From positions 44,123,847 to 44,187,846 of the forward strand of contig CP154954.1 in NCBI GenBank assembly GCA_039621445.1: DNA of 64,000 nucleotides, written 5' to 3'. Below the pieces are notes generated by a model that was given only the letters and a program-made list of their open reading frames with translations, had not been told where the DNA came from and did no database searches. This DNA comes from Euglena gracilis. Lineage: Eukaryota. Below, one piece after another: positions 471-27,476 of this stretch. Position 1 is the stretch's first letter. The number at the start of each line of letters is the position of its first letter. A program made the position numbers and the translations under genes.

Positions 471-531
471 TTGGTCAGCCCGAGGGGGGTGATAAGTGGG
501 GGGGGTTTGAGTGGTATCAGGGGTGCCAGAC

Positions 532-3500
532 CTTGAGCGTCGCCACATCTGTCTCACGGGTCAGCAGCTCCGTCCGCAGTCTCTCCCTCGATGCCGACTC
601 GTGCTGGAGGTCCCGCTTCGTCTGGCCCAAGGCGTTCTCCTTCACCTCCAGCTGGACCTGTGCCCAACCCCCACACGGCGCAACCACGACGCCCACGGCA
701 TCACCGCGACCAGGGGGTCCCGAGGAACAATGCAGTCCGGGCCGAGCTGAGCAACACGTCATGCTTCCGCGGCCGGACACCGCTGGACTGTTTTCGGAAA
801 GCCAGGGAGTGGCGCAGGGGACCTGCATGGCCCGCTGTGCGGCCACGGCCTCCTGGGCCCGCCCCTGCCACGCCTGCCCCTCCGCCGCCGCGGCCTCCAG
901 GTCCGCCCGCAGCTGCCGCACCTCCTTGCCCCGGCTCTCCAGGTCCACCTGTGGGCCGGCGTTTTGTGGCGGCGCCTGCTGACCTGCGCTGGATTGACCC
1001 TGTTTGTGTGGCTGCCTGTTTGTCAGCGGATTGTGCCTGGTGGATGAGGCTCCACAGAAAGGCACGGTGCGAAGGCCGCCAACACACTGTTGGCCGGAGC
1101 GGGAGATTCCTGTCAAGCGACGCCACCGGTGACTTATTTCTTCGTTTAATATTGGGCACAAAATAAAAGGCATTTGCACCAGGCATAAAGCCAAAGAACT
1201 CACAGGGATCAAGGAGCACAAATTCAAACGACACAAAGCACCTGCAGACTCATCCCCTTCTCACTTCCACAAAGTCTATGGAGCACAAGCCGCGGGAGAG
1301 ACTGCTCGGCTTTTGTGGAGCTTCCATATGCCTCCACCGATGACTGCACACCTTCATTTTGGTGGAATCCCGGGCCAGTTTGGACAGGGCCTGGTGCAGT
1401 TGCTCCTTTTCCGCCACCTCGTGGTCGAACCGGATCTGCAGCGTGCCTAGCTGGGCCTCCTTCGCCACCAGTTGTGCCTGTGTGAGGTCGCACTACTGCG
1501 CGGTACGAGGTCGTGTGAGTCGCGGCTTTTGGGAAAGACAAATCGGCCGGTGGTTTGGTGGAAGCACAGCGGCTGGGGGAGACTTGACAACGGGAGTTGA
1601 TGGGGATTTCAAAAATCCCATGCCCGGTTGCGGGCTTCCCCCCCACCAGTCTAAGGCAAACTTTCCACTGTGAAAAAACTTCGAGTCCGAAACAGCTTTT
1701 GCTCAACGGGAAATCGCATTCCCAGCGCGTTTGGCGCCAGGAAAAAATGCTGAAAATTCGGCCGGTGTTGGCACGGGCTCCTTGGCCGCCACAACCCCCC
1801 CAAGGGGGTTGGGGCGTCCCAGAGACCAAAATCAGCCACTGAATCATTCCTAAAAAAAAAACACGGATGGGGGATCTGCAGCTGGGCCCCAGAGCCGAAC
1901 CCCAACGCGCTGGGGTGGGGGGCTGGCTGCTGGCTCAAGAAAAACACGCCCGGCAACGAATGCATCAGGCAACTCAGGGTGGGCCACACCTGCAGCTCAC
2001 TGCGCTCTGCCCCCGCCTCCTGCAGCCGCGCCTTGAGGTCCTGAAGGGGCTTGGGGGAGACGGCCGCCTCCTGCAGCTTCGCCGCCTGCGCCTCCCCCTG
2101 CTGCAGCGAGTGCTGTGGCGGACGGAGCGGTACACAGCACACGACCACTGGGGAAAACCGGCCCGGTGGTCCCCTCTGGCAGATCGCTCCGGGGGGTGAG
2201 GGGATTTCACTCAGGGGGGGGGGGGTTGCACGCATGTGCACTCACAAGACGTACGGGATGAAGTCCATCCAAAAAAAGCCGCAATTGCACGATAACGATG
2301 AGAATTATGCTTCTTTGTCGCATCAATGAAAACCCCCAGCAGAATGGACTGGGGGGAAAGACATCACCGCCCCCCCTCCCCCACCGCAAACCTCGATCTC
2401 CGCCGTCTGGAACCGCCGTTCGAGGTCCCACAGCGCCTTCTCCTTCGCCTGCAGCTGGCGGAGGGCCGCCTCCAGCTCCGCCTTCAGGGAGGTCGTGGTC
2501 ATCTCCGCCAGGGCGTGCTGTTGGATGACAATGTGTGGGGCTCCCCGTTTCGATGCCCTCCCACATGCCATCGTGCTTAGGGCCAAAGAAAATGCAGAAA
2601 AAGTCACAGAAATGCACAGAAATGTGGAAAATAGAACTTTATGCAAACATTGATTTGGTTGGGCGGTTCAGGCAGAGGCTGCTGTCAAAAACTATAGTTT
2701 GAAACCTGACTTTAAATGAGGGGAAGCAGCTACAAAAGGGCCATTGGTTAATTCCATTGGCGACGGAAATTCCGAATTCGCCTTCTTTTCCAGCCAGCAT
2801 CTTTTGAACAACACACACGTGCGCAAGCACACAAATTGGTCGCAGCTCCCTGGGATGGCATGAACTTTCACGACACATGCACCAGTAGCGGGAACAGACT
2901 GCCAATAATCGTGCGATAAACGAAATTTCAAGGTCCCCAAAAACCTCAAAACACAGCAACCCCCCCAAATATACCCCCCTCCCAAGTATAAAGCCCCCCC
3001 CCCCAAATATAAAGCCCCCTGGGGGGGTTTGGTTTTGCCGCCCAAATATAAAGCCCCCCCCCGACATGGAGCCAGAAGCTGGTGCCATTCAGGAAAAAGT
3101 AGAAAATTTTTGGGTGGATACAGCATTTTTTTTCACCAGAAATGCTCCATTCAGATAAGAATTGCACATTTCTGCGAAAAATGGGAGGTACACAAAAAAT
3201 TTTTGGCATAAAATTGGTATTTGGCCACAATTGAAGGCTGACAAAGGGTCACAGAGGACACCCCAAAAAAAAAAGAATATAAAGCCCCCCCCCCCAATGT
3301 GAAGCCCCCCTGAGGGTCTTGAAATCCCGTCCAAATATAAAGCCGGGGGGATTTATATTTGAGGGGTTTATATTCTTTCTATTCTGAGCCATTTCCATCC
3401 AACTTTTTGTGAAATTTTACGTAATCAAAAACCACCAGCAAATGCGTCCAGCAGATGAGGTCCAAATCACCGGAGTCAAGGCTGAGACACATGCAAACCC

Positions 3501-5366
3501 ATTGACCTGTGCGTCAATATCCTCCAATTGAAGTGGCCTCTCCCGCAGCAATAGTTCAGTTTCCTCCAACCGCTGCAACGCTGTGTCCAGCTCGGGCTCC
3601 AGTTTCATCAACTCGGCTATCTGCAAGTGAAAGATGAAAGCCTAATGCTGGTTCTGCCCGCCTTGGAAACTTGTCAAAAAAAAAACAGAGGACCAAAACG
3701 GGCATGGAGGCAGGGTGGGGTCTAAATGGAAATGCACCTCCCCACCGCCCGCAGACTGAGGTGAAGGTCCACAGTGAATGCTCCTGCGCTTCAATTGGCA
3801 ATTGCGGGGGTTTAAATAGGTGAGGTACAAGCTTTAGCAGGACACTGAGATTGCTTGAAATGTGCAAAATCATGCCCGGATAATTCCCCTCAGGGCGTCC
3901 ATCCAGCTGGCAGCCTTTTATGACCTCGGACCCCAACGCATTGGGCCTGTGTTTTTTAGACTGAGAAGCAAACCCAGGAATTCAGTTAAAAGAAGTGTGA
4001 TTTTGATGTTCAGACAGGGGCACCCATGTCAGGGTTCCACGTCAGAAACTGAAATATTCAGCGGCATAGAAGAAAGACAGGAGCTTGACCCGGAGAAATC
4101 AGCAAATTATGCGAAAAATTGGTTAAGAACCAGAAATTGAGGATTGTCAACGTTGGCGACACCACACAGCCACCCTTTGGTTGGACAGGACTTCAAAATC
4201 ACTCAAAAATCTTGCGAGCTACCACCACCTCCTGGGGGTATGTTTCAACTTAACTGCATCTTTCCGTGGCCCAATCAGGGGTTTTTTAAAGCCCGGGGGG
4301 AGGGGGGGAGGTGGTCGCACCCACCCACCCACCCACCCCCTGGAGTAGGCCCTCCCCAGGGGAGGGGGGGGGGTCCCGGGGGACCCACCCACTTTTGCCC
4401 AAAAAAATGCTAAAAATAGCCCCTTTTCAAAATTTTCGGCGCCTTCGGCGCCGAAAAAGATATACCCACCAGCCCCTACCCCCACCCCCCCCCCTCCCCC
4501 CTCCCCCGGGGAGGGGCCCAAGACTAAAAAAACCCCTGGGCCCAATCCAAGGGTCGAATTATTTGAGAGGGCATTCAGAACTTTTGGGAATGAGCTTATT
4601 CAGGACTTTCAAATTCAGCCACCCTTCTCAACCATGACAAAAAGAGGTGAGAATTGGGTCGAGTGTTTGGGGACTTAGACACCCAGAGTTATAACCCCCC
4701 ACTTGTAAACCCCCCGCTTGGGCTGACCAACCAAACCTTGACTAAAAACCTCCCCCCAGGGAAGAAAAATGAAGGACACCAGGGACGACTTTTTGGGTAG
4801 CAAACCACCCAAAAACTAATTTTTTTGCAATTTTTGAGACCGACCATTATCAAAAGTGCCATTTTTTCCAAAAAAAATTCTAATTTGGGGTTTTGGGGGT
4901 CATTTTGTAGGGGTCGGATTTTCACCAACAATTCCTTGAATCATAAGCCCCCAAATATAAACCGATCCTGTATACCCCGGGGGGGTTTAAGCAGGGGAGG
5001 GAGGTACCTTGGCCTCGGCCAACTTCAATTGCCCTTGAAGGTCCTGCACGGCACGCTCTTTAGTCTGCAGCCGTTCTGCCATGGTGTTCATCATTGTTTG
5101 GACGTCCTGGTGTCCCTGCAGGGGAGGATAGACAGTGGACGGAAGTTGCGTACATGCGTCCATTTTACTTTGTCAAGGATGACTGTTTTGTGGGGCTGTT
5201 TTGGAAAAAAACAAAAGAACAACTGGCAAAGAGATCTTGAGCATGGAAGCACCTGGTTGTTGAACATATCAAGCTGGTTTTGTAGCCGGAGAATTTCTTC
5301 GCCTTTTTCTTGGAGCATCTCCGCAAAGTGGTCATTTTCGGTTTGAAGACGATTGAGCTCCACTTG
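532..5366 (-). CDS. Multi-exon coiled-coil protein gene (partial; 5' and 3' ends not located)
   Basis: Eight AG|exon|GT-bounded phase-0 exons on the minus strand: 5253-5366, 5008-5115, 3507-3620, 2392-2517, 1990-2112, 1352-1477, 823-948, 532-657. They splice without stops into an E/Q/L/K/A/R-rich heptad sequence (QVELNRLQTENDHFAEMLQEKGEEILRLQ...VQLEVKENALGQTKRDLQHE...). Confidence 0.85.
4276..4538. mobile_element. hAT-like MITE in an intron
   Basis: TIRs CAGGGGTTTTTT / AAAAAACCCCTG. 8-bp TSD GGCCCAAT at 4268-4275 and 4539-4546. Confidence 0.8.
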
Positions 5367-9679: not shown

Positions 9680-10095
9680 TTTGGTTCCACATCTTTGGGG
9701 CCACATCTTGGCCCAGATGGGGGAAATTTTGGGTCCATTTGATGCCACATCTTGGCCACAGCCGTGGGCCACATTTTGGGGCCAGTTTGCTGCCACATCT
9801 TGGGGGCAGTCTGGTGCCACAGGTGGGGGCAACGTTTGGTGCCACATCTTGGCCACAGTTGGGGGAAACATTTTGGGTCCAGCTTTCTGGCACATCTTGG
9901 GCAGAGCTGTGGGCCACATCTTGGTCACAGATGGGGGAAACATTTTGTGCTCCACATTTGGTGCCACAGGCGGGGGCAAGACTTTGGTGGATTTTGGTGG
10001 ATTTTGTGGGTCCAGTTTTCTGGCACAACTTGGGCCCACATTTTGGGGCGAGTTTCGTGCCCCATCTTGGGGGTAGTTTTGTGCCCCATCTTGGG
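9680..10095. repeat. Degenerate short-period tandem repeat (GCCACATCTTGG-like)
   Basis: Many CCACATCTTGG / CCACATTTTGG / GGGCCAC variants in tandem. Confidence 0.7.
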
Positions 10096-10448
10096 TCAAG
10101 TTTTGTACCATAGGTGGGGAGCGGGTCCTGTTCAGGGGTCCTGTTTTATATTTTTTTGGCCGGGGTCCTGTCCAAAACGGTCCTTTCTCCCTGGGGGGGG
10201 GGGGTTGGAAAACGGAGCCCTGGGTAGGTGTTTTTTTTTGGGTAACGACACATTTTAGGGGGTGTTGTTTGTTTGGCCGACGGCAAACTTGGGCGCGGAC
10301 TTCCCAGAAGAAGAGGGAAGGCATCCAGGGTGGCCTGCCATACCGGAGCGACAAATTACTCTTTGCGGCAGCCGCAATCCCCTCCCCTCGTTCGTATAAA
10401 AAAAAATGATCTAAATACAGACTGTTTTAATCCCTACTTAAAAAAAGA

Positions 10449-11300
10449 GTACCACTGGGGGTTGAGTCCAGCCGTTGCAGCCCAACACAGGGTCGAACCG
10501 AGGTCCTTCCCTGGCCAGAGAAACAACAAACCGGCCACCCAGCAGACCTGCAGCCCGTAGGCAGACTACAAGTGTTTTAACAGCAGCAATGTTAGTATAC
10601 GCCCTCGGAGCTGGAATTACCGCAGCTGCTGGCACCAGACTTGCCCTCCGGTTGATACTCACGGCTGTCTTTGGATAGCGTCCATTCCAAGCCCCATCGG
10701 CACGTAAGGCCGACGGGGTTGCTACTGTTCGTCGCTGCCTCACAGACTGTCTTTGCATGGGGCAATTTGCGTGCCTGCTGCCCACCTTGGTAGTGGTAGC
10801 CGTCTCTCAGGCTCCCTCTCCGGAATCGAACCCTGATTCTCCGTTACCCGTCAAGGCCACTGTGGTCCGATACACCACAGTCAAGCTGATAGGTCAGAAG
10901 CTCTTGCGATCAAGTGGGGCATGCACGAGGCATGCACGAAATCCACCAGCACTGCGGCCACGGAGGGCCAGCCTGAGTCAACCATGCCAACACACTGGCC
11001 TTGCGGCCGCTGGTCTTCGTATCAGCTGGGCATACATCCGCCACCACCGGTGAAGGGACTGTCCGGAGACAGGATCCCTGCCGAGTGTTGCATGGCTGAC
11101 TGGGTCGAACGTGTATTAGCCACAAGGTTTTGGTGGATGTCCAATGGGGTCCTTGCAGGTGGACCGAGCACACTCTATCACGTAGATGACTGCTGATGTA
11201 AGGAGCCATTCACAGATCCACTGTCACTCCGTTTGCGCTGAGACGTGCATGGCTTAGCCCTTGAACAAAGCATATGACTGCTGGCAGGATCAACCAGATT
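10449..11300 (-). rRNA. SSU (18S) rRNA, 5' fragment (about 850 nt, broken in V4)
   Basis: Minus strand starts AATCTGGTTGATCCTGCCAGCAGTCATATGC at 11300 and contains GTGCCAGCAGCTGCGGTAATTCCAGCTCC. It stops abruptly at 10449 against AT-rich non-rDNA sequence. Confidence 0.95.
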
Positions 11301-13045
11301 CGTCGGTCCGTTCCCAGCATTCCCCCCCTTGCAGGGGTTCCTGCCGAAAAACCAGACGACATTCACAACACGGCAACGTTAGCCTGGCCTTGCAGTCCCC
11401 TCTCGTTGCTGACACGAGAGGGGAGGCCTGATTTCGTCTCACACCACAACGGTTCACTGATTTGCACTGCTCAATCCGAGGCTCTCACAGAGGGGGCCCT
11501 GACGGTGGAGCCCGGTCAACACATCGACATCGTTGGTGGCTCGATTGGGTGAAGCTTCGACACACCGTGGGGTTCCCCTGGCCCCGAGACACTAGACCAT
11601 CGACCATCGACGTGAAGCCCAGGCTTCTCACACACACAGGTTCCCTTGGCTGTTGGCTCTAGCAGACTGCTTCGGCCCCGTGGGGCTTGCTCTCTCTCCG
11701 AACACAATCCTCCGACTGATCGGTCTCTGTTGTTGCTTTGGGTCGATGCCAGCTTTCGTTGACAGCAAGCACAACGTTTCGAATGGGGATTCCAGCTGTT
11801 GGTTGGTCGGCGGAGGCTGTGCAGAAGACAGCCTCGACACCGGGCTCACGATGGCAGTCCGTACACTCTCCCATGACTCGACGTGACGTTTGGCCTGATC
11901 CTGAACGGATCCCAGCTGCTCGTTGCCGGAGGGGGGTCAGTCCATGCTCTGCCCCGTTGCTCTCACGTTCCCTTAGCTGCATTTGCTCGTGGAGTCAGGC
12001 CAACACGTCACGGAATCGAATGGTAGAGCTCGAACACAGATCCATCGGTGCCTTGCCAGGGAGGGATTGGGGTTGTGTTGAAGTCTCCCCACCACTCCGT
12101 CCGGCTAAGGTCCCCACCTCGTAGAGTGGGCCTTCCGTCGTTTGCTGCTTTGACTTGTATCCCGGGGGGTCAGCTACCCCGGTCCCGACTTTGCCTGCTC
12201 CCGTCGGTCGAGTCACAGTCCAACAAAGCATACGACACGATCGTTCACCGTTGCCTGCAATGACGGTGCCTGCTGGTTGATGGAATTACCGAGCCGCTGG
12301 TGCTTGAAGCACCTCCACGGTGGAACCACTGTCCGGAGACAGTGGCCCACGACCTTTGGCCACGGCAGGTCCAGGCCGGCAGCCCTTGCACCCCTGTCCT
12401 GCCCTCCCACAGGCCGGGCTGCTAGCCTGTGGGGTGATAGGCAGGACACTCACTTGGGGAACACTGCTCACGGAGCACACCGTCACTGCACAGCTGTCGG
12501 AGCACAGCTTTCGGAGCACACCATTCCACGCCGGCCAGGAAGCCGTATCTTGTTACCACCTTTCAGTGCCGTTCCACTGCCTCTGAAGCCTTTCGGCAGT
12601 GGCCCCCTGGTCAGCCTCCTGATTTGCCTCTCATGCGTTTCCGGGGGGGGGGTTCCCCCTATTATATAGTGTCCGCGGACCTGCAGCCACTACACTTTTC
12701 TGTCGGGCCGACTCTGAATTTGGACATTTTTTCCCTGATACAGTACTACAGTATCAGGGAACGTCCAATTCAGCGAAGCCGACAGCACCAGCACTTCGGG
12801 TCCCCAGAAACCCGACTGCATCCTCACTTCGGCAGGACTTGAATGGCAGATCTCCGGAAATCCACCGAAGTGGAATTTCTCTAAGTCGGCACTACTGAAC
12901 TTTCCAAGGGGATCGGAATCCTCGGTTGTTGTTGTGTGCCTCCCTTCACACAGCTGGCCTGAGACACAGGCCTTGGCCTTTGGTGGTTGCTGCAGACCAC
13001 CGAGAGGCCCCCTTCCATCAGCAAGCTGCAGGGGCCCCTCTCACC
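11301..13045 (-). promoter_or_regulatory. rDNA intergenic spacer / 5' ETS (presumed Pol I promoter region)
   Basis: Lies between the LSU 3' end and the SSU 5' end. Contains a 10-bp inverted repeat TCCCTGATAC..GTATCAGGGA (12732-12760). LSU-side boundary approximate. Confidence 0.75.
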
Positions 13046-14147
13046 ACCCACTCTGTCAGGTCGGCCCCAGCAGGGGCAGCCGAAGCCACTCCCTGCAGAA
13101 GCCCGGCCTTGGAGCTCAACGGATCGGACAACACAATCGACTGGTCGGATGATGGCCACACTTTGCTGTGTCCTTCCCTGATCGGTGCTGGTATAACCTC
13201 TGAACACTTACACTCGCCGCAGATCCAGCCTGGTCTGGGCGGGGTGTTGGGTCGGCACACCCCGTTGACTGTTGGCTCTAGCTGGTGGGATCGATGATGC
13301 TCTGCCTTCGTTGCACACGCCTTGCACAAAACCGTCACTCTCTGTTTTCGGCTTCGGTCAGGCAGCAGCCCACCGAGGGCAAGCCTGCTGGGATGCTTCA
13401 CCCGGAGCACAACAACCGTGTTTGGTCTCTGTTTGTCCGACCGGCAGGAGGCTTGCAGCCTGCCCACTCAATGTTGCCATCTCGCAGGCCTGCACACCAC
13501 ATCCGGTGCCGGCAATCACTCCGGAAGACACTTGACGCACAGGCTTCACACGACGATGGGTCACACTCTCCAGACAGTCAATGCTCAGCTGTGGCCACTT
13601 GCTTTGCCAGTTCAGATCCAGTTGGTGTTGGCGCAGACCCAGAAGGGTACTGCTCTGCCTCGATGCTCCACAGATGTCCCTTCGGTTGTTGGCTGTCGGG
13701 ATGGGCAGCTTGCAGGAACTTGCCTTGGGGTTGCACACGCCTCGTCGGCAGGGGTTGCTCCACTTGGAGAATTGCACACACTGATTCACCTGGCTGGTTC
13801 AGCCCACAAACACAACGGGTTGGCCGTTCAGGCATGCTGTAGGCCTGGTCTCGGATTCAGGCTTAAGATGCGTCCAGTCAGTATCCGTCACTTGGTAGCT
13901 TCACTACACCAGTCGCTCGACTCACGGTGGAAACCAGGGGAGTGCCACAAGGGTTCCTCTCGTACTACCATGTGATGCCATTGTCACGCCCATCGCACTG
14001 GGAGACGATACACTTCACCCTCCGGAAGGGGTTCGGAGGCTGTGGTGTGGGAGAGGCTTCACTCTGGTGGCCCACAACAACAGCTCCTGGCCCCCGGGGG
14101 CTGCAGTAAACTACGCACAGGTTGCTCTGTCTGTGGCAGGAGGGTAA

Positions 14148-14191
<44 letters not shown>

Positions 14192-14240
14192 GTTGGTGGG
14201 TGAACAATCCAACTCTTCCACTCGGCTGCGGGTGGGAAGC

Positions 14241-14272
<32 letters not shown>

Positions 14273-15077
14273 GACGTCGCTTTGAACGCTTGGCAGCCAC
14301 AAGCCAGTTATCCCTGTGGTAATTTTTCTGACACCTCTGGCTTCGATATCCAGAATTCGCACACTTGACCAAAGGATCGTTAGGCCACGATTGCACGTTT
14401 CGGACTCGTACTGAGAGTCGCAGCATCAGCAGCACCTTTGGCCTTCTCCTCCCTGGGAGATTTCTGTTCTGCCTGAGCAATGCTTCAGGACGCCTTCGTT
14501 GTGTTGTAAAAGGCGTGCCGCCCCAGCCAAACTCCCCAACTGATCGATGTTTCGAGACTGCTGATCGGACTGTGACACGTCCAGAGTCGTCCACAACAGA
14601 GACTGCTGCAGACTTGGTGCATGAATCGGGGAAAGCCACGATCCCACCACAAGGGCAGGGTCGATGTCCAAATGGCCACCGCTCTCTTGCAACTCGATGA
14701 GTAAAACAACGGTGAAGGTAGTGGTATTTCACTGCAGGCTCGCACCAGATTATCTCTTGGCGTGGGTCAGCCAGCACTCCGAAGAGAGAGGCCTCACCAT
14801 TGCCGTCTCCAGCACACACAACTGACCGTAGGGCAAGCCCTCTTCTCCACTCGGGGTTGTTGCCTTAGGCAGTCGGTGGCCTTCGTTGGTGGCACTCACC
14901 TCCCACCTATGCTACGCCCCACATGTTGTTGCACAGTATCAAACTAGAGTCAAACTCAACAGGGTCTTCTTTCCCCGCTGACACATCCAAGCCCGTTCCC
15001 TTGGTTGTTGGTTCACCAGACAGCGACTAGGGACAGCAGGAATCTCGTTGATCCATTCATGCGCGTCAATAATTGGT

Positions 15078-15138
<61 letters not shown>

Positions 15139-18100
15139 GCTGAATCTCTTCGCATTGACAATCAGAGCACTGGGCAGAAGTCACCTCACGGAACCAGCCA
15201 GCTGGTCCCTTCACAAAGCTGGGTTTCAATTAAACAGTCAGATTCCCCTGCACAGCAACAGTTCCACACGAGCCACTGGTTAGTCAACAGGTCGGCCCTA
15301 CAGGCCACGAGGACCCGAAGGGTTGCCCCTGTCCGGGATGAAGCAGAGGCCACGGCGAAGACAGCCCCGCAGAACGGCCCCGAGAGGCCATCCCACAGGG
15401 TGATCGACCGTAACTCCCACAACCCCCACGACAGGGCCTGCTGACTTGGCCTCTGGAGCCACCGTATCTTCCAAAGGTGCACGGCCAGTTTGCCGACTTC
15501 CCTTAGCTGCATTTCGTCCGTGGACAAGCGACGTCTAGTCGAGGAGACCGGCTGCGGTGATGCAGTACGGACACAAGGGTCCTGAGGCACGAGAATCCTT
15601 CAGGCTGTTCATTGGAACCAGTGACTGCCACTTTGCACACACTTTGACACGTTCGACTTTGTGTCGGATGTTGTAATCAGGACTGCCATCGGTGTGGAGA
15701 CCACACCGCCTTGCTGAGCGAAGGGCATACACCACCATCTGTCATGCCGATCGATAGCCCGCGTGAGTCTGCATCAGGAGGAAACGAGAACTCCACAGGG
15801 GATTCACTGGTTCGATGCCTGGAGGGGCTGCCTTGGGGGTGTCGCCACCGACCCGAAGGGACCTCTAGCCCATGACAGTAGAATCTTGCTCGCACTTGCC
15901 TGTTTGCCATTCCTGCCCGATGCTCTGCTCCTCTCTCAGCTCCCCTGCAAGGGAATCCAACGACGGGGGCAGCTTGGTTGTTGCTCTCTCCAGTGGCATG
16001 CACACCACGTCGAGGCCCCACCACAGGGGTTGAGGTCAGGCAGATCGAGGCAGCTTTGGTTGTTCGGTGAACTTACCACTTGGCTCACGGTCGGTTGACC
16101 CACATTCAACGGCTGTTTGGTGTGGAAACCTGCTCCACTCCAGTCCTCAACCGCACACAGCGGGGTTGTGTTGCCACTCCTCTCCAGGTGGAGTACTCGC
16201 TACTACAACCAAGATCTGCTCTGGGCAACGCCTCAAGCCGGGATCAATCCCAACACGATCAGCTGTTGTCCATGCCCTTTCTACACAACGATGCTCTGCC
16301 TTGGCTGCCACATCGATGGCAGACTGTAAGGGAGACACACTGACTTGGGCACCATCCATTTTCGGAGCTGCGCACTTCGGCAGGTGAGTTGTTACACATT
16401 CCTCAGCGGGTTCCAACCTTCATGGCCACCGACCTGCTATCCGTAGTAAGCAACATCCTTTGTGGGATCTGAGTATGAGCCAGCACTCGGGATCTGTAAG
16501 TCTGCTCTCGGAGCACCCCGCATCACCAGCACTGCTTACCAGTCATGGTCCACGTAGGATCCATTGTTCAACGACAGTCTTGCAACGACTCGTTCACTGG
16601 GATCGAACCACGAAGGGTCCGGGTAACAGTCGGGGGACAGCCTCGAGGCCACCGTTCTGCCATTGCCTTCCCCTCTGGAGCTGGGTTCTCTCTGCTTCAC
16701 CCCAGAGGATCCGGGTCTGGCTTGGGGTGCCACCGACTCCCTTGGCCTGACCCCACGACACGTCACCAGCAACGTACAGCCAGTTGCAACTACGGGACGA
16801 ACATGCTCAGAAGACGGGGAGAACTGCTGTTACACAGCCTCCTGTCGTGGCAAAGAAGCATGCCTGGGTTGTCCGCACCCATTCACAGTTCGAGGATAGG
16901 TTGAGGAGCTGGGCTCCCCAGGGTTGGCCTCTCATGCGTTGCTTTACCGGATGCAACCAGTCACATACAAGCTTTGCATCATTGGATCCCAGCTATCCTG
17001 AGGGAAACTTCGAAGGGAACCAGCTACTAGGTGGCTCGATTGGCCTTTCACCCCTATGCCGCACTCAGGCTACACAATTTGCACGTCAGAACAGCGACCG
17101 GCTTCCACCACAGTTTCCCATGGCTTCACCGTAGAACGGTATAGTTCACCACCTTTCGGGTCCCAAGGACCTTGCAAGCACTCGAAACCCTGTCCACTGG
17201 ACTTCGGGTCCGGTCGTTCCATGCAGAGACTAGCCCCATCTGGAAGGATAGTTGCCTTCACCACGCCTCAGAAGAGGTTTTGGATCAGCCATCCGACTGG
17301 CAAGCTCCTTAGACTCCTTGGTCCGTGTTTCGAGACGGGCAGAGAGCAGCACTGCAAGGAGGGGTGCCAAGCTCTGCTGCCAATTTCTCACTGGGGTCAG
17401 GCTGGGGGACGGTGCAGCCAGCAAGGGGACCACCGTCAGAACGGTGCAGCCCCCGGTGCAGCCAAGCACACCCCGAATCCAGCCCAACCACCAGCGACCG
17501 ACATGTCCGAAGACACACCGGGATCGAGGACAAGCAGCAACAACCATCGACCGGCATCGAACACCCGATGCAACAGGGCAGTGGTGTGGGAGGCCTCTGG
17601 CACACTCTGCTTGGAGACCGTTCAGCCACACAACAAGACCACCGTTGACCGGGGTCGGTCCGTCACGATTCCCACACTTGGTTGAATGTCTCACTCGCAA
17701 ACTCCAGGTCCTGGCAGGAGGCCCGCGTGCGGGGGGCGGTACAGGGGACTGGGGGGGGGCTGGGGGGTGGGGGGCGCTAGCGGGGGGGGGGTGGGGGGGG
17801 GGGGGGTGCGGGGGGGGGTGGGGGTAACAAAAAAAAAAAAAAAAAAAAAAAAGCTGCCACCACGGGGCGGCCACGATAGTCATCCCTGTCCGGAGACAGG
17901 GGCTCGGTGGCCAGCCCTGGGCTGACCCAGAGACGCTTGGTCAGATCTAGAACGATACAGCACTGCACACCACCGATCCTGTTGCGGCTTCAGGGACTTT
18001 TAACCCTCTTCGCGGAGTTCTTTGCATCCTTCGATCACTCTACTTGTGCACTATCGGTCCCAGGTCTGTATGCCACCTTGTGACGGATACACGTCACTCT

Positions 18101-18497
18101 TCAAACTGCAGTCCCAAGCCACTCTACTCGGGGATACAGCCAGCCACATCCCAGTGATCCCAGCACACGGTTCAGCCATACGGGACAGTCTCCCTGTTTC
18201 GTGGGTCCATTCCAGGACTCTTCTTGGTACTGGGAAGCACCGAGACACAGCCAACTGCTCCATAGCCCACAGGGTTTGCTGGATTCCAACGAAAGCCGAT
18301 CGAGATGCACCACAACCCAGGCACCACACGGGTGACCTAAAGTCGGGGTCCTCGAGTCAGGAAGCCCATTTTCAGGAAGAGCCGTGGGTCCTGCTCGTTC
18401 ATTCGCCATTACTGCAGCAATCGAGGTTGCTTGCTGTTCCTCCACTGAGTGATATGCTTAAGTTCGGTGGGTCATTCCATGTGCGCCAGGTCACACG
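13046..18497 (-). rRNA. LSU (28S-equivalent) rRNA region, fragmented euglenid type with internal spacers
   Basis: Minus strand shows ACCCACCGAACTTAAGCATAT near the 5' end, CCGTCTCGAAACACGGACCAAGGAGT, TAACTATGACTCTCTTAAGGTAGCCAAATG, CACAGGGATAACTGGCTTGTGGC and sarcin-ricin-like AGTACGAGAGGAAC (about 13953-13966). A 3'-terminal helix-like segment sits at about 13050-13130. Fragment boundaries not resolved. Confidence 0.92.
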
Positions 18498-18831
18498 ACC
18501 AGTTGTAGGCAGAGGGCCACTGGGACCTTGCCTGTTGACTGCCCATCTCTGGGCCGAGGGACCGACAGTGGTTCGAGGCAGATGCATCGTTGCTTGGGAG
18601 AGCCACAAGTTTCAGCCATCGGTTACTGGGGCAGGAGCCGGAGGCCCCTGCACCTCGACCGTGCCACACCTCCGTTGCATCGGTCGATCGATCCACTCGG
18701 ACAGCCAACAATCAACACACCGGCAATGGCATCGACCTGGCAGGGCCAGGCAACACCACCACCGATCATCGGAGCACCACTTGGGGAGAGGGGATCATTG
18801 CCAGCAATGGATCCACCTGCTCCCGTCCATC

Positions 18832-18994
18832 CAACACTGGCGCACAGGCAGCTCGGGGGGGAACCCCTTGCTGGCCAGTTGCGTTCGAAGCTGTTCCTTT
18901 GTCCAGATCACAAGACTCTGCGTATCACCGAACGTATCGCAAGGCTGCTGTGTCCTTCCTCAGAACCTGGGCCAAGACATCCACCACAACAGGT
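18832..18994 (-). rRNA. 5.8S rRNA (LSU1)
   Basis: ACCTGTTGTGGTGGATGTCTTGGC...GAGGAAGGACACAGC...TTCGAACGCAACTGGC is a 5.8S-like pattern, about 330 nt upstream of the LSU 5' end. Confidence 0.85.
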
Positions 18995-19077
18995 AAGCTC
19001 TTTGCCAGACGACTCCTTCGACCGTGACTTCATCGGAGGGTTGGTCAGACCCTCTCTCACCCAGCCTCGGGTTTGAC

Positions 19078-19613
19078 CCCCAGGCATACTAGGCATTCCA
19101 CGTTCAAGGCAGACAGTTGCAACCATCTATCCCCAGTACGTCACAGGCTTGCAGGATTTCCCAGCCTCTTCAGGCCAGGGCCCACCGGAGTGGGCATGTC
19201 GACACCTTCACTGTGACAATGTAGTGCGCGTGCGGCCCAGGACATCTGGGAGCATCACAGACCTGCTGTTGGCTCTAGCATGCATGCCCTTTGTGGCGGA
19301 CACAGCACCTCAGAGAAGCTGAACTGGAGGCTCTCGGGAGCATGCACCGGTACATCTCCCCCTGTTGCCAGGGGGCTGCCACCGAGCAGCCGAACCCTAC
19401 CAAATGCGAGCCTCAGGCTAGTGGGAGGCAGATGTCTCACTCGTTATCGGAATCAACCAGACAAATCACTCCACCAATCAGGAGCGGCCATGCACCACCG
19501 TCCACAAGATCAAGAAAGAGCTCTCAATCTGTCAATCCCAGTTGCGTCCTGACCTGGTAACATTCCCCGCGTTGAGTCAAATTAAGCCGCATACTCCACG
19601 CCTTGTGGTGCCA

Positions 19614-19647
<34 letters not shown>

Positions 19648-20311
19648 AGTACTCCCCCCTGAACCCACAGGCTGTGGATTTCTCGTTGTGGGAGGAGTGG
19701 CCCTGACAGAGTCTAGGATTCTTGCTCTGCCAAGGCCTGGCCGGCATCGTTTACAGTGGCCGGACTACGACGGTGTCTGATCATCTTTGCTCCCCGAACT
19801 CTCATTCTTGATCGACGGACGTGCACTTGCAGAACGCCTTCGCTGCAGTGGATCTGGCAGCGATCTAAGAATTTCACCTCTGGCGCTCCCGTATCTTTCA
19901 CCCCGAACAGTCCCATCACTTACGATCGATGGGTGCAAGCTGCAGGGACAGGGGACGAAGCCTGACGAGACCCGAAGGCCAGGCAGGGCAACGATCCTGT
20001 TGATCCTGCAGGAACACACCACCAGGTTGTCCAGAGTGGGCCCCAAGGCCAGCACAACTCCAATGCCACACTTGGTCGATGCCTTGACATTCCATGGATG
20101 GACATTCAGCCGTCGCGGGGATGCTTTGAGCACACTGAGTTTTCCAGGGTGTCGAAGACGGTGGGCTCCGGTGGTGGACCAGAGGTAGACTACCCAACTC
20201 GAGGCTGGGTCCCCTGTTGGTGTCCGTTGCCAGTGCGGGAGGCATAAACCGCTTTGGCCTGCAATGAAGCAGACTTTTGGCAGGAGCAGATCTCACCATC
20301 GACTGAGAGGT
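19078..20311 (-). rRNA. SSU (18S) rRNA, V4-to-3' fragment lacking the 3'-terminal part
   Basis: Contains GAGGTGAAATTCTTAGA, AAACTTAAAGGAATTGACGG, GGTGGTGCATGGCCG and GCACGCGCACTAC. It ends after GGAATGCCTAGTATGCCTGG with no GTACACACCGCCCGT or 3'-end motif. Confidence 0.92.
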
Positions 20312-23300
20312 AGATAAACAATAAAAATACTGGGCCAACCGTAGTTTCGGGCCAAAAAACAGGGGGCCGAGCAGTGAAAATTTTCAGAAAAAAAAAGGTT
20401 GGACAAATGTTAAAAGTTTTTATTTGTGCGACCAAAAAAGCGCCCAGTTTTTTTGCATTTTGTGAAGTCTATTTCACAAACTTCAAAAAAAATTTCAAAA
20501 CCATTTTGCGGGATTTCGCAAAAAGAAGTTTCTGACTTTTCTGGGGGAATAATTCATCTTCATTGTCTGCACGTGGCTTATATTTTTCCCATCTGGCCCA
20601 AAATCTATGTTTTCCAAAGTTTTAGGTTGTGTGTTGTGTGTGGAGCAATTTTGAGGGGTTTACTCGAGAAAAAGGTGGAGGAATTGAGGGTAATGAGTGG
20701 ATACTTTTTTTGTCGGGTATTTCACAGGCCACTATATGACGTGATGATGGGAGAGCAAGTTTGCACGAGTGTCAAACTTTCAGGAGGCTTTGCACACAAA
20801 AAAATCCAAAATTTTTGAAAAAAATTTTGGGGCCAAGCTAGACAAATTAAGGAACCAAGTTTGAATGGAAGGAGGAGGGGAGCCAAACTCTGGGGGGGGG
20901 GTCTATGCATACGTTGGTACCTGAAGATTGACTCCCAAGCCTTAACCTCCGCCCAAATAATAATAAATAACCCCACCCACGCCATGAGACACCCCCAACC
21001 TTGGACGTCATTTGGGGATTTTCGGTCCAACGCCAAATTTGATGCTGTTGCCCGGTGAGATTCAATTTGATTTTGGCATTCTTTTAGTCATTTGGGCCTT
21101 TTTTGGCGATTGCAGAGATCAAAGGGCAAAGCTGAAAACAATTCCTCTTCTCCGTGGTTGGTTTCCTCCTTGGAGAAACTTAATACTAAAAAGAAAACCC
21201 TCTGAACACGTTCATAAATAAGAGAGAATCTCATTCATAATTGCTTGTAGTTGTTTTGGCCATTTGATCATTCGGCGTGATTATTTGTGGTTTTGGAAAA
21301 TCCTCAAAATTGTGCTGGTTCCTGATTTGAAGAAATCCCCAGTACCTAACGATTAAGCACACACCTCTTTCAATTGAGTTTTTTTTCTAACATCTTTCAT
21401 TTTTTTTCTGTCTTTTTCCCCACGCCTCATTCCAAATTTGCACTGTTTCATTATTTGCGAAGCAGACATCGTTGCACACCAAAAAAGGATGGGAGTAAGA
21501 AAAATACTGCTGTCCAAACCTTCAAAATTCAGCTACCAAGAAGGTTGGGGACCGTGGATTTGGGGGACTGATAATATTATGGGGGAGCACATGGCTGGCT
21601 GACGGCTGGCCGACGGCGTGACGGAAGCCGGGTCATTTTGTTTAGCTGACTTTGGGTAACAAATGCCTAATTTGGTGTGCCAGTGGGGAATTTTGAGAGG
21701 CAAATTCCTAATTTAGTGTGCCAATTCCTAATTTTCGCAGGGGGGTCTCGGGGAAGGGGTCACGGGGGGAATGTGGCAGTTTTGACGGGTCACATGTGAC
21801 CAGTGTGACCTCACATACAATGTTATATGGGACCTATTTTTAGAACTTTTGGTTTAGACATAGATTGAATTAGGAATTTATCACACATTTTATTGGCAAT
21901 TTTGATTCCTACCCTCCCCCCCCCCCTATGTCCAACGACCAGTAACCTCTGTCCTCCGACCGGGGGGGGTGGTCGTTGGACATAGGGTAGTGACCAAAAA
22001 GGTGTCCTCTGACCGGGGGGGTGGTTGTTGGACAAGGGGTCAAAAAAAATGTTGGTGGGTAATTGGGACCCCACCCCCCAAATAAGGTCAAATTTTCCCT
22101 TCCAGCGCTTTGCGCCGAAAATTTTGGGCAATTTTGACAAATTTTTGTCCAAAAAGTGCCAAAAAAAAAATGGCATTTTGGCCAATTTTTGACCGATTTG
22201 GGGACACAAAAATTTTCGGCCCGGTGCTTCGCACCGGGACCAAAATTTTTGCCAAACCTCCAAAAAGGTGTCCTCTGACCGGGGGGGGGTGGTCGTTGGA
22301 CATAGGGGGGTCGTTGGACATAGGGGGGGGGGGGGGTAATTTGGGTGCCAATCCCTGATTGGGTGCCATTTTTGGCTCCTCCTGCGGAAACCCTCCATGT
22401 GTGGGTCGGGGGGGGGGGGTCGTGGGGGGGTCACGGGGGATACACCCTCCATTTCACACAAAATTTGAGCCTTTTTTGTCCATTATCAGGTAAGTTTTGC
22501 CAGTCCATTGAAAATGGGACACCCGTTGAGCAATTTTAGTTATTCGATTAATTTGTGAACAAAAATCCACACAATGACAAGAGAATGACCCAAAAAATAG
22601 GCCAAAAGGTCAAAATTGGTCAAAAAAAGTCCAAAATTGGCAAAATTGACAAAAATTGGCGAAAAATGACTTCAAATGGACAAAAATGCAGCCTCCACCA
22701 ACGATGAACATGACCTTGAAGGGAGATTAACGGCGAACTTCTGAATTGGCTCGGGTCATTTTCCTGTGAGTCACACGGCTGGCCGACGGCTGGCCGACGG
22801 CTGGCCGACGGCGTGCTCCCCCTATTAGTTGGGATATATATAAAAAAGGGCCTTGTGGGGCTGTGCTCCTCCACCAAATCCACTGTTCGCCGTCCACATT
22901 GACAAAAGACACCAAAAGTCATTACCTGAATGGCTACAGTTGTTACAAAAAAAATTGTTGTGCAACAAAAAATTTTCCATTTAAGGCCATTTTAGGCCAT
23001 TTTAGGCCGTTTTAGGCCATTTTAGCTATAGGTGCTTGGACGCAGGGGAGACACCCCCCATGGGTGACCATTGGCACCCATGACCAATCATGTGTGCCCA
23101 ATGCCAAAAATGGCAAGGGTGGTCTACTCAGGTTCAACCCCCCCCCCCGATCCAGTGCAGATGATCGGAGGTGCGGGACCCCCCCCCCTTCCCAGGAGCC
23201 ATTTTTGACCCGAAAATGACCTCACCCCCAAATTCCAAAAAAAACCCTCCAAATGCTCAAAATATCAATAAATTTGATGTTTTAGAATCCAATTCTCCAA

Positions 23301-23415
23301 AACAATTGTCAAAAAATGCCCAAATTCGCATTTTGAAGGCAAAACCAATACACTGCCAAAAAGTGCCAAAGAGGCAAAAGGTAGCGCATTGGTGAAACAT
23401 TTGGAAAAGCTTTGG

Positions 23416-23448
<33 letters not shown>

Positions 23449-26400
23449 GCAAATTGCTTGTAAAATCCTCCAGGAGCTCCCCCAGGATGTACACGTTTCC
23501 ACTGGAGAGCACTGAGATTAAGTTTCGGCTCCATCAGGAATTTTTTTTCATTTTGTGTAAAAAAAGGCATTTTGTCACCAAAAAAAAATGCAAAATGGGG
23601 GAAAAAATTGCAAAAATTCTGGTCTCGGGGGGAAATCGGGGCCCCTTCAAACCTTGGCCCAAAAACACTTGTCTCGAAATCGGCCCAAACACGGCTTCAG
23701 GGGGTGGGCCTGGGTCACGGGGGGGGGGGGGTCACGGGCAGGGCAGAACGGGAAGGCCTGGTGGGGGGGTGGTGGTCGACCACCCCCCACCAACCACAGC
23801 ATTTTCACCGATTTCGGGAAAACGGGGATTTTGGCCAGAAAAATTCTTGAAATTTTTTTTTGAAAAATGAACCCAAAACACATGATTTTTTGATGGAAAA
23901 CCACATTCTTTTCACAAAAAATCTCAAAAAATTCAGGGTTAAAAAAAATTGGTAGTTTTCAGGAGGGGGTGGAAAATAACGAAGGTCAAAAAAAGTGGAC
24001 CAAATTTTGGCACAGTCAAACTTTACTGCCTTTTTTTCTTTGAAATTTTTTGGACTTTCAATGGCATTTTTTGCTTCAAAAACCTCTCAAAATCAAAAAT
24101 TTGAGAAAATGTTGAATTGTTGGAAGGTGAGAAAAAAAACAGGATTTTGGGGCTTTTTGAGGAGACCCCCTATATGGGTCCCAAAATGGTCAAAAAAACA
24201 CCCGGCACCGAAGGCGCCGGAAAATTTTTTTTCGGGTCCAAAAATTGGTGCTCCCGGAAATACGGGAAGAGGTGGTGGGGGGGGGTCGACCCCCCCCCCA
24301 CCATGCAGAGGGTGGGGTGGGGGGTGGTCGACCTCCCCCACCCACAACCCTGGCTGTTCGGTCGACTCCCGTTCTGCCCTGGTCACGGGGGATTTTGGAC
24401 TATGAACTTTGGATGGATGATTTTGCAAAAAGAATTTCATTGCAATTCCAATTCATTACGGCTTTCTGAAAATGAGAGGGAAATGATGGCTCCGTGCGGA
24501 ACATTGGCCATGCTACTTCTGGTGGTCGGGCCGACCTTGGTCGGGCCGACCACTGGGGGTGTATGGGACGCGGGGGGGGACGGTGGGGGGGGGGACGTGG
24601 GGGGGGATGTGGGGGAGATGCCCCTCCAGAAGCCGAATTTTTTCCATTGTTAACGGCGCGCCCCCCCCCCCTTAGCCCCGATGTGCCTGGCTGTCCCAAC
24701 AAAAATTCACTCAAAATAGCGATTTTTTTCAGGGTCAAAAAGGGATCCCAAATGGTCGTTTTTTGACAAAAAAAAAGCAAAAATGGGCCGCGCACATAGC
24801 GCGCGGCCGGTTTCATCGAATTTTGACCAAAAAAACCCACAAAAATAACCAAAAAAGGACTTTTTGGGGACTCTAGGCGCCCGCAGCATTTCTATCTTCT
24901 TTCATTGGCCACTAGAAATCAAGAATTTGAGCACTCAAAATCTCGACTAGGGACTCTCTCATCAACATTTGGAAACAACAATAAGGAAATCAGGCATTTG
25001 CCACCCAGAATTAGAAATTAGCAAACACAAAAAGTTTGCACTCATGAATTTGGCATTTACTCCAAAAATTAGGAGTTTGCAAAAGAAATTGGCACCCAAA
25101 ATTAGGCATTTGCTTCCAAATTTCGGAGTTTGCACCTCAAATTAGGCATTTGCCTCCGAAACTTTGGAGTTGACACCCAAAATTTCGGCACCACCCAAAA
25201 ATTATGATTTTACCCCAAAAATTAGGCATTTGCAGTTTGCACCTAAAAATTAGGTAGACCAAAAAATTGGATATCACACCCAATATTTGGAATTTCCCTT
25301 AAAATTAGGAATCCGCATCCCAAATTAGGCATTACTCACTCAAAGCTAGGAATTGGCCCACCAAATTAGGCATTTGACAATCAAAATTGCACTCACATGA
25401 ACCCGCGTCCGTCACGCCGTCAGCCAGCCGTCGGCCAGCCGTGTCCAAGATGGAGAACAAATGCTTCAATTGGTCCTTGGACAACTTGCATTTGTTCTTC
25501 CTCCTTTCTTTTCCCTTCTCTCTCTTCGGTACTTGTTCGCTAAGCGACCCCCACCGAAATTTTTCTAAGTCGGAATTCTTAGGGTTATTGAAGGAGTATG
25601 TTCTGAACAGCCGGCTGCAGCCCAACCCAAAAATTTCAAGGGTTCAAAAATACTTGTTACTATCCGGCCGAACCGCTACTGAAATTTTTCTAAGTCGGTT
25701 AATGAAGGAGTTGGGTTAGGGTCAGGGTTAGGGTTTGATTTGGCTGTTTTTCACCATTTTTTTTGAATTTGGGATGTTTTTTTGACGTTTTTCGGGATAT
25801 TGGAATGTGTTTCCGTTCATTTTGAACTGAAATAAGAGAATCGAATTTTTGAGGGGGGGGTTGAAATTTCCAAAAAGGGGGGGTATTGCAGTACAGTGGT
25901 GGTCGGGCCGACCAGGTCGGCCCGACCACCATAGGTCGATAAGCCATGGCCAATGGGGGTGTCTCCCCCGCGTCCCCCCCGCGTCCCCCCCCCCCCGCGT
26001 CCCCCCCGGGTTACGATTTCGGCCAGAAGTTAGGCCAAAGTGCTGCCCTAACTTTGGTCCCAAAGTTAGTCCAGAAGTTAGGCCTAAATTGGTTTTTTGG
26101 TGATTTTGGTTTAATTTGGGGCTCATTGTTGGAAATTTTTCTCAGTCCTTTTTCCCTTAGGAATGTACAGACTCAGCGCATTTTTTGCGCATTTTTTTGC
26201 GCATTTTTGCGCATTTTTTCCGAGGGCCGCACAGCGCATTCCCCCCCCTGCACCTGAGGTGTGGGATTTTGCAAATTAAGATGTCAAATTTTGGAATACA
26301 CGATCGCTGAAAATAAGCGCTGTGTGCATCATGGCTGAATCCTGTGGCCATCTGTCAAAAGCCCTTGGGAAGAGCTTTCGATTGATGGGTAACATGGCAC

Positions 26401-27476
26401 CAGACCTGTGAAAACTTCAATGGGCCGATCGACATGGCTATGCGCCCAAAGGAGCCCAAAAGGTGCTCCAAAATGTTCAGAAACTGGGTATTTGGGGCGA
26501 AATTGGCCGTGATTCCTTGAACGCCGGTTCGGGCGTGAAGCCAGAGAGAGCCCCTAATCCACGGTTTCAACAACTGTGTCCAGAACACGGTTCGGGCGTG
26601 AAGCCGTGTTTCAGAACGCCGGTTCGGGTTTGGAGTTTGATGGGATTGAGAGCACCTAAAACCGACCCAAAAATTCCTTATTTCTCTCTTTGTCCCAAGA
26701 ATCCTTTACAAATAGTGCCATGACACTGTACTGAAACCGTGTATTGGGGCTCTGGCTTCACGCCCGAACCGGCGTTCCGGAGTCTGGGGGACCCAAAATA
26801 AAAAGTGCCAAAAAGTGTCCAAAAGGGTTTGTAGACATGTGGCAATCATATCTGAGCAGTTTTTTGGGGGGTATTTGGCCAGAAATTGGGGTATTTTGTG
26901 GAACAATTTCCATTTGGCCAAATTTGGGGAATTTCTGAAATAGAGTGCCATGCAGCACGGCTGAAATCTAAGGCCATCTGCTGAAAGTCCTTGAGAAGGG
27001 CTATCGATCAAGAGGCAATATGGCAGGTGGACAGTGGATTTTAGAATTTGCGAAAAGGGTCGGAATATGCGATTGGCGATTTTCAGGGCGCTATGCAGTG
27101 TGGTCTGAGGCTACCAAGCGAAGTCTTGGGGAGAGCTTTCGATTGATATGCTGCATGGCACCTGAGGTGTGGGATTTCACAAATTAAGATGTCAAATTTT
27201 GGAATACACGATCGCTGAAAATAAGCGCTGTGTGCATCATGGCTGAATCCTGTGGCCATCTGTCAAAAGCCCTTGGGAAGAGCTTTCGATTGATGGGTAA
27301 CATGGCACCAGACGCATGAAAACTTCAGTTGGCCAATCGACATGGCCATGAGCCCAAAGGAGCCCAAAAGGTGCTCCAAAATGTTCAGAAACTGGGTATT
27401 TGGGGCGAAATTGGCCGTGATTCCTTGAACGCCGGTTCGGGCGTGAAGCCGGAGAGAGCCCCTAATCCACGGTTTC

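Follow-up and report, generated by a model that had tools for sequence, protein, structure and literature searches.

Does the chromosomal DNA of Euglena gracilis hold a copy of its ribosomal DNA circle, and, if it does, how did the copy arrive there and could it serve as a template for the circles? The rRNA genes of this organism are carried on an 11-kbp circle present at 800 to 4000 copies per cell, and the number of chromosomal copies, put at "few if any", has been in question since the 1980s (PMC2784804). A curated reference for the circle is 11,055 bp long, and the preprint that provides it also describes around 1000 candidate extrachromosomal circular DNAs (eccDNAs) and "heteroplasmy" of the rDNA circles (bioRxiv 10.1101/2023.11.29.569251). 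An earlier note on the 64-kb stretch of assembled DNA analysed here (the window) proposed that one such circle had been cut once and captured in the chromosome, and added that no chromosomal array had been described, a fair statement in view of the "few if any" of the published account. Among the papers covered by a literature search, none describes such a locus.

A single permuted rDNA unit

Rfam returned five matches, all of them on the minus strand (two stretches of SSU, then 5.8S, LSU and further SSU), and they delimit an rDNA copy that occupies positions 10449-20311, or 9,863 bp. Read along that strand, the order is SSU from V4 to model position 1649, 5.8S, full LSU, spacer, and SSU from model position 4 to V4; this is the SSU-5.8S-LSU-spacer order of the E. 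gracilis circle, on one strand and colinear with it when permutation is allowed for. The parts bounded by Rfam sum exactly to the interval (852 + 2514 + 4679 + 338 + 164 + 60 + 1256 = 9,863 nt). Neither self-BLAST nor Rfam detected other rDNA pieces in the 64-kb window, and there is no second head-to-tail unit in it of the kind that a tandem array would contain. The earlier description of the gene order therefore holds for 5.8S, LSU, spacer and the 5' part of SSU, but not for an SSU that runs from V4 to its 3' end, and its "one unit" is single but incomplete, being approximately 1.19 kb shorter than the cited 11,055-bp reference.

The 5.8S gene (LSU species 1) lies at 18832..18995 (Rfam 5_8S_rRNA, model 1-154, 68.7 bits) and is separated from LSU by a 338-nt ITS2 at 18494..18831, defined as the gap between the two Rfam matches. 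The LSU region, with the internal spacers typical of Euglena, spans 18493..13815 and covers LSU_rRNA_eukarya model positions 1-3401 at 1549 bits. Within expansion segment D2 it contains a low-complexity block (17744..17852, minus strand), identified from TRF, the sequence and model position, that reads on the rRNA strand as T24 and then C runs over about 85 nt; Rfam gave no match for 17500-18120 alone, and a wider stretch was used to place the block in D2. The published E. gracilis primers LSU-F (14610-14631, minus strand) and LSU-R (13994-14017, plus strand) each match one site with 0 mismatches, 638 bp apart, and from its sequence the insert is E. gracilis rDNA, identity to the circle having been compared over the 46 nt of these two primers only. 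Exact-pattern scans of metagenome_contigs, genome_contigs and viral_contigs for the circle reference gave 0 matches. A megablast search of PLSDB matched 28 records, in short pieces only and with no rDNA-circle record among them; the best match had 76.7% identity over 7% of the query, and the remaining four that were listed were to a 36-nt stretch in haloarchaeal plasmids.

The intergenic spacer and 5' external transcribed spacer (2,514 nt, 11301..13814, minus strand, delimited by the Rfam boundaries) are internal to the insert and apparently uninterrupted. Self-BLAST revealed a 31-nt palindrome at 12731-12761, which on the rRNA strand is followed some 70-80 nt downstream by a tatataatagggg motif, and this region is a putative promoter.

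A small-subunit gene split in V4 and lacking its 3' end

The 5' part of the SSU gene (852 nt, 10449..11300, minus strand) begins at a 5' terminus at 11300, reading aatctggttgatcctgccag, and runs into the V4 expansion; Rfam aligns model positions 4-605 at 11297..10594, and a low-posterior alignment of V4 continues to about 10449. The middle part (1,256 nt, 19056..20311, minus strand) extends from the interior of V4 to model position 1649, with model 623-1113 at 20411..19662 and 1170-1649 at 19605..19056, and everything that the alignment places upstream of about 20311 is unaligned insert. Each fragment thus stops inside V4, where the earlier note had put both ends, and the two are complementary, with no overlap in model coordinates (4-605 vs approximately 623/730-1649). 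A single permuted unit on one strand with complementary, nonoverlapping SSU fragments supports a circle that was opened once in V4. Breakage of a circle at one point would produce an identical permuted, full-length structure whether it happened in vitro or in vivo, and the structure is therefore shared with the proposal that the locus is a library or assembly artefact absent from the cell, either because a circle sheared once was joined in vitro to two nuclear fragments or because rDNA reads served as a bridge between two chimeric reads and led the assembler to join two contigs. Taken together, these two versions are a real possibility but, in our judgment, less likely than a true insertion; with 800 to 4000 circles per cell (PMC2784804), monomers sheared once would be plentiful raw material for chimeric reads, but for chimeric joining to occur twice at a single site would be rare.

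The SSU sequence ends at model position 1649 and lacks positions 1650-1831. Between that point and the start of 5.8S there remain 60 nt (18996..19055, minus strand, from the Rfam boundaries), which mark the site of an internal deletion, and an alignment of the SSU 3' end forced by Rfam overruns the 5.8S match. Searches with the sequences that we take to be the decoding-centre and 3'-terminal motifs of SSU gave 0 matches in the 64 kb, both for GTACACACCGCCCGTC with as many as 2 mismatches allowed and for GTGAACCTGCRGAAGGATC with as many as 3. Whereas a complete circle unit would measure about 11.06 kb and carry an intact SSU gene, the copy has 9,863 bp and no SSU 3' motifs, and in place of uninterrupted SSU, 5.8S and LSU genes behind a promoter there is an SSU gene that is split in V4 and devoid of positions 1650-1831.

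The missing 1.19 kb or so corresponds to roughly 200 nt at the 3' end of the SSU gene together with the greater part of ITS1. If the E. gracilis SSU is 2,305 nt long, as we assume, 197 nt are left for the missing 3' end, in which the Rfam model has 182 positions, and by this length bookkeeping the V4 ends would lie some 0-20 nt apart on the circle; a single internal deletion would therefore explain the shortfall in length, and the insert probably suffered one deletion only. When the two V4 halves were joined in silico and folded, 0 base pairs formed across the joint and the gain in folding energy was 0, vs -6.0 +/- 3.3 for 30 control joins, results that are not informative on the adjacency of the ends. 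The structure accordingly fits the "cut once and captured" of the earlier note, but that phrase leaves out a further loss, of the 3' end of SSU and the bulk of ITS1. Deletion of the decoding centre favours a captured or decaying copy over a fresh canonical fragment joined in the library, and the loss of approximately 1.19 kb from an essential part would not be expected in a typical circle. Deleted variants of the circle may exist, given the "heteroplasmy" of the 2023 preprint, and would weaken the argument for capture that is drawn from the deletion.

These features also bear on whether the locus could be what is left of an ancestral rDNA locus in the chromosome or a chromosomal master copy of the circles, an idea to which the presence of an rDNA unit with an uninterrupted spacer in a chromosomal assembly lends some colour and for which the long-standing question of a chromosomal copy in Euglena (PMC2784804) leaves room. 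The SSU gene is split in V4, its parts stand at opposite ends of the unit and its 3' end is gone; the unit is single and has no terminal repeat from which a circle could be released by recombination; and two unit ends at one site are the signature of circle-to-linear conversion and not of an array remnant. We give this explanation almost no credence. Its functional-template version is refuted by the missing SSU 3' end, and the earlier view that the locus, with its split and truncated gene, is no master template is thereby upheld. No functional 18S rRNA can come from this copy, and regeneration of circles from it is impossible because it has no terminal repeat.

Junctions and flanking DNA

Composition and homopolymer content shift at about 10449 and 20311, and we placed the junctions at 10448/10449 and 20311/20312, the boundary bases being approximate. 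The adjoining left flank (10384..10448) is AT-rich, with A runs on the plus strand, and the right flank (20312..20800) is AT-rich, with A and T runs. Over 100 nt the GC content is 0.38 on the left and 0.39 on the right (0.25 for 60 nt on the left, 0.367 for 400 nt on the right), and only 15% of the non-rDNA 100-nt windows have a value of 0.40 or less; both 100-nt flanks are A-rich on the plus strand. The resemblance of the flanks hints weakly at a single AT-rich target and to that extent speaks against an artefactual join. At the kilobase scale, GC differs between the two sides (0.50-0.57 on the left, 0.44-0.49 on the right), as would also be the case after a false join.

The insert bears no terminal repeats, and there is no target-site duplication: the longest word common to the flank ends is 6 nt, a length reached in 842 of 2000 shuffles. 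The absence of a duplication, and likewise the repeat-rich, non-rDNA nuclear character of the surroundings, had been correctly described in the earlier note. Non-rDNA continues from the insert, with no N, for more than 10 kb to the left and for more than 43 kb to the right, so that in the assembled sequence donor DNA is bounded on both sides by unrelated DNA; neither flank matches rRNA in Rfam, and in self-BLAST neither resembles the insert except in low-complexity runs. A likeness of the left flank to SSU model positions 768-810 was rejected as the forcing of an AU-rich region of the model onto AT-rich DNA; the homologue of these positions sits near 20140, outside the left flank. Absence of a duplication, together with the absence of a second rDNA piece from the window, is expected for the end joining of one molecule.

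The extent of the flanking DNA also weighs on a further proposal, in which recombination between a deleted rDNA circle and other eccDNA gave a molecule that remained extrachromosomal and was misplaced in a chromosome-scale scaffold. The reported eccDNA candidates and rDNA-circle "heteroplasmy" (bioRxiv 10.1101/2023.11.29.569251) give this some plausibility, and a selfish, nonfunctional circle could tolerate the deletion found in the insert; more than 10 kb plus more than 43 kb of non-rDNA far exceeds a typical eccDNA, however, and no circular junction is visible in the window. We consider it very improbable.

Continuity across the insert was sought in the flanks themselves. Ten flank open reading frames, drawn from 22 non-rDNA frames of at least 200 amino acids, gave 0 Pfam matches and so provided no spanning gene for this purpose. 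Within the window the immediate flanks have no second copy (the right flank was checked to 21588), so that the empty site cannot be reconstructed from repeats and contiguity is not demonstrable, a circumstance that leaves room for an artefact. A search of sequencing runs listed 24 runs from 16 studies with word shares of 0.40-0.77; in 7 of these 24 the share was 0.40, in agreement with the fraction of the query that is rDNA (302 of 801 bases), and flank words were only partly present in the listed runs. Since each listed run comprises at most 2.3 Gb, less than 1x of the 2.37-Gb genome, the shares are uninformative on the junction; what they do indicate is confined to a wide distribution of the rDNA part and a probable multicopy state of the left flank.

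The published chromosome-level assembly was built with NextDenovo from noisy PacBio Sequel reads with a mean length of 8.5 kb and was polished with Illumina data (PMC11252322). If the window derives from that assembly, polishing of such CLR data would wipe out any divergence of the copy from the circle, to the benefit of the artefact explanation, but a chimera would have had to prevail over the true paths at a coverage of approximately 159x (PMC11252322).

Probable capture of a circle and its parallels

We favour the view that the locus is a real, NUMT-like capture by end joining of an rDNA circle that had been cut once, and that it is now a nuclear pseudogene; we assign this reading a probability of roughly 0.6. 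A circle would have been opened by a single double-strand break within V4 of SSU, and nonhomologous end joining would have inserted the resulting linear, permuted monomer where AT-rich chromosomal DNA was broken; the loss of approximately 1.19 kb may have occurred in the donor circle, at capture or afterwards. If capture took place in this way, both junctions should be present in the living genome.

It is a long shot that the locus is real and is also one of the "few" chromosomal rDNA units deduced from hybridization in the 1980s. Were this true, traffic from circle to chromosome would be ongoing in Euglena; sibling insertions would be expected at other places in the 2.4-Gb genome, among them perhaps an intact one capable of reseeding the circles; and the intact spacer of the copy could serve as an ectopic promoter for RNA polymerase I, with transcription running through the 852 nt of SSU into the chromosome. 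A sequence-resolved integrated unit would show that entry of circles into chromosomes is possible and would provide junction sequences usable in PCR on different strains. The origin of the circles is left unanswered by this locus because the copy is dead. In addition, high-copy circles are likely to cause false joins when genomes are assembled from long reads, and the locus offers a concrete place for checking whether one has occurred.

Compared with the E. gracilis circle, the copy has the same SSU-5.8S-LSU-spacer order and matches both LSU primers exactly but is linear, permuted, flanked by other DNA and 9,863 bp long, with the 3' end of SSU and the greater part of ITS1 missing. The micronuclear rDNA copy of Tetrahymena and the chromosomal copy of Dictyostelium are intact and serve as templates; the Euglena locus resembles these master copies in being a chromosomal unit in an organism whose working rDNA is extrachromosomal, and it differs from them in being split and truncated. 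In yeast, rDNA circles re-enter the homologous array by recombination, and the return of a circle to a chromosome is common to that process, to the reintegration of ecDNA in tumours and to the capture that we favour; unlike the yeast case, there is no homologous array here, and by the test of duplications and shared flank words the joints look nonhomologous. A further parallel is with NUMTs and NUPTs, nuclear insertions of mitochondrial and plastid DNA made by nonhomologous end joining: there too, high-copy extrachromosomal DNA lies in nuclear DNA with no target-site duplication, nonfunctional and prone to deletion, and there too such loci can be assembly chimeras. The Euglena locus differs from NUMTs and NUPTs in that its donor is a nuclear, plasmid-like rDNA circle, nearly the whole unit of which is present as one permuted monomer.

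Structure of the rDNA insert

All five rRNA matches found in the window with Rfam lie on the minus strand: small-subunit (SSU) model positions 623 to 1113 (20411 to 19662) and 1170 to 1649 (19605 to 19056), 5.8S (18995 to 18832), the LSU over its full model, 1 to 3401 (13815 to 18493), and SSU model positions 4 to 605 (11297 to 10594), with the SSU 5' terminus at 11300 reading aatctggttgatcctgccag. On the rRNA strand the parts run SSU middle part, 5.8S, LSU, spacer, and SSU 5' part: a single rDNA unit in circularly permuted form. No further rDNA fragments were found elsewhere in the 64-kb window. Rfam leaves the stretch of the first SSU match beyond ~20311 unaligned, as an insert, and at ~10449 and ~20311, GC-rich, homopolymer-free DNA gives way to AT-rich DNA with A/T runs; the boundaries at 10449 and 20311 proposed in an earlier note were accepted to within a few bases. 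The SSU 5' part (852 nt), spacer (2,514 nt), LSU (4,679 nt), ITS2 (338 nt), 5.8S (164 nt), a remnant between SSU model position 1649 and 5.8S (60 nt), and the SSU middle part (1,256 nt) sum exactly to the 9,863 nt of the whole insert. Two primers used to amplify the E. gracilis extrachromosomal rDNA circle in a 2023 preprint (bioRxiv 10.1101/2023.11.29.569251) each match the window once with 0 mismatches, at sites in the 3' region of the LSU that are separated by 638 bp. Among the sequencing runs found, each amounting to <1x of the genome, the fraction of sampled words present was 0.40 in 7 of the 24 listed, which agrees with the rDNA fraction of the query (302/801 bases). Within LSU expansion segment D2, a block at 17744-17852 reads T24 followed by ~85 nt of C runs on the rRNA strand (G runs and then A24 on the plus strand); similar G-run/A-run sequences occur in the nuclear flanks, e.g., at 23414-23450, 24570-24615, and 62886-62913, and the block may belong to the circle itself, may have been inserted, or may be an artefact of long-read sequencing.

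The permuted unit described earlier, SSU (V4 to 3')-5.8S-LSU-IGS-SSU (5' to V4), stood in all but one part, as the SSU 3' end is missing. The insert leaves the SSU after tggaatgcctagtatgcc, and the 5.8S start lies 60 nt past SSU model position 1649; in the whole 64-kb window, there were 0 matches to the universal decoding-centre motif (≤2 mismatches) or to the SSU 3'-terminal motif (≤3 mismatches), in what we take to be their sequences, and an Rfam alignment forced to complete the SSU enters the 5.8S match. Since the curated circle comprises 11,055 bp (bioRxiv 10.1101/2023.11.29.569251), ~1,192 bp is absent from the insert. Both insert ends fall inside the V4 variable region (Rfam coordinates): the SSU 5' fragment stops ~145 nt past model position 605, and the other fragment starts ~170 nt ahead of the first confidently aligned V4 position (~model 740). 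When the V4 halves were joined in silico and folded, no base pairs formed across the joint, which argues neither for nor against their adjacency. If the E. gracilis SSU rRNA is, as we assume, 2,305 nt long, then 2,305 - 852 - 1,256 leaves 197 nt for the absent 3' end, against 182 positions of the Rfam SSU model in that part, so that the V4 gap would be only about 0 to 20 nt; on the same assumption, a single internal deletion (~200 nt of SSU and ~1 kb of ITS1) would explain the whole shortfall. The three sequence collections scanned yielded 0 matches to the circle sequence, and in PLSDB only short conserved rRNA pieces matched.

Junctions and surrounding DNA

As the earlier note had stated, there is no target-site duplication at the junctions (10448/10449 and 20311/20312): the longest word common to the flank ends is 6 nt, a length reached in 842 of 2000 shuffles. 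Neither immediate flank (10110-10448 or 20312-21588) recurs in the window, and the empty site therefore cannot be rebuilt; the outer flanks contain many tandem and dispersed repeats. Of the 22 non-rDNA ORFs that are at least 200 aa long, 10 in the flanks were scanned, and no Pfam-recognisable coding sequence was found in them. Many left-flank words are present in the low-coverage sequencing runs, which suggests that this flank is multicopy in the genome. The 100-nt flanks have a GC content of 0.38 and 0.39 (only 15% of non-rDNA 100-nt windows are at ≤0.40), and both are A-rich on the same strand, a similarity that hints weakly at a single AT-rich target. Over kilobases the two sides differ, with a GC content of 0.50-0.57 to the left and 0.44-0.49 to the right.

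At 9694-10112, 340 nt away from the left junction, lies a degenerate, TTTGGTGCCACATCTTGGGGCCAG-like tandem array with periods of 24/48/97 nt. A dispersed repeat family (32507-38970 and 49567-51364; three to seven partial copies, 73-98% identity), with a conserved 77-nt core occurring seven times, makes up much of the window's right-hand part. Two 12/18-nt tandem arrays (43818-44477 and 51684-52730) lie in inverted orientation ~7-8 kb apart, with arms of ≤302 nt that are 75-90% complementary and very strong GC skew nearby (-0.31 at 44-45 kb, +0.53 at 52-53 kb). A composite satellite with 34/44/78-nt periodicity (53085-55250) is interrupted at 53516-54197 by a 71-nt array, with identities of up to 99% among its copies. 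A 388-nt inverted pair (27472-27859 and 56492-56879; 95% complementary, 28.6 kb apart), with 32-nt tandem repeats in each arm, probably represents two copies of one dispersed element.

Origin and consequences of the insert

We consider a real chromosomal insertion of the rDNA circle the leading explanation, with a probability of about 0.6, and the circle capture proposed earlier is plausible. A single double-strand break within V4 of one circle would have been followed by end joining at a break in a chromosome, with neither homology nor a target-site duplication; loss of the SSU 3' end and ITS1 would have preceded, accompanied, or followed capture. The permuted monomer from a once-broken circle would be identical whether breakage and joining took place in the cell or in a library made for sequencing, and a library chimera is a possible, though less likely, source; with 800-4000 circles per cell (PMC2784804), chimeric reads containing rDNA must exist. 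For the published chromosome-level assembly of E. gracilis, NextDenovo was applied to PacBio Sequel data (reads averaging 8.5 kb; 159x), with three rounds of polishing with Illumina data (PMC11252322). At such high coverage, if the window derives from that assembly, a false path must beat the true ones, and a chimera must also accommodate both joints at one site and the likeness of the left and right flanks; the main objection is that 1.19 kb of an essential region is deleted, which is unexpected in a typical circle, although circle "heteroplasmy," reported in the 2023 preprint (bioRxiv 10.1101/2023.11.29.569251), weakens this argument. That the sequence represents a rearranged extrachromosomal molecule is very improbable. 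Polishing would draw an integrated copy to the circle consensus, and identity is thus unusable for dating an insertion.

The insert cannot produce 18S rRNA and, without a terminal repeat, cannot release a circle by recombination. Its spacer is internal and uninterrupted, and if a putative spacer promoter were active, transcription would cross the 852-nt SSU 5' part and enter the left flank. The spacer carries a 31-nt, 90% palindrome (12731-12761, minus strand); on the rRNA strand, a tatataatagggg motif and then a C run follow ~70-80 nt further downstream, and 12640-12761 is a candidate promoter or origin of the circle.

Relation to known systems

Functional chromosomal master copies of rDNA are exemplified by Tetrahymena and Dictyostelium. 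An intact set of SSU, 5.8S, and LSU genes was sought in the insert and not found, placing it outside this class, as the earlier note had argued in denying it the role of master template; we regard a relic or master copy as the least probable reading of all. The title of a 1988 study by Ravel-Chapuis refers to a "paucity of chromosomal units." Among the article texts covered by our literature search, none described an integrated rDNA unit at the sequence level, and, in the passages covered, the assembly paper refers only to "223 rRNAs" (PMC11252322). If real, the locus adds a new case to a known class of insertions: it works in the same way as NUMTs and NUPTs but differs from them in that its donor is a nuclear rDNA plasmid.
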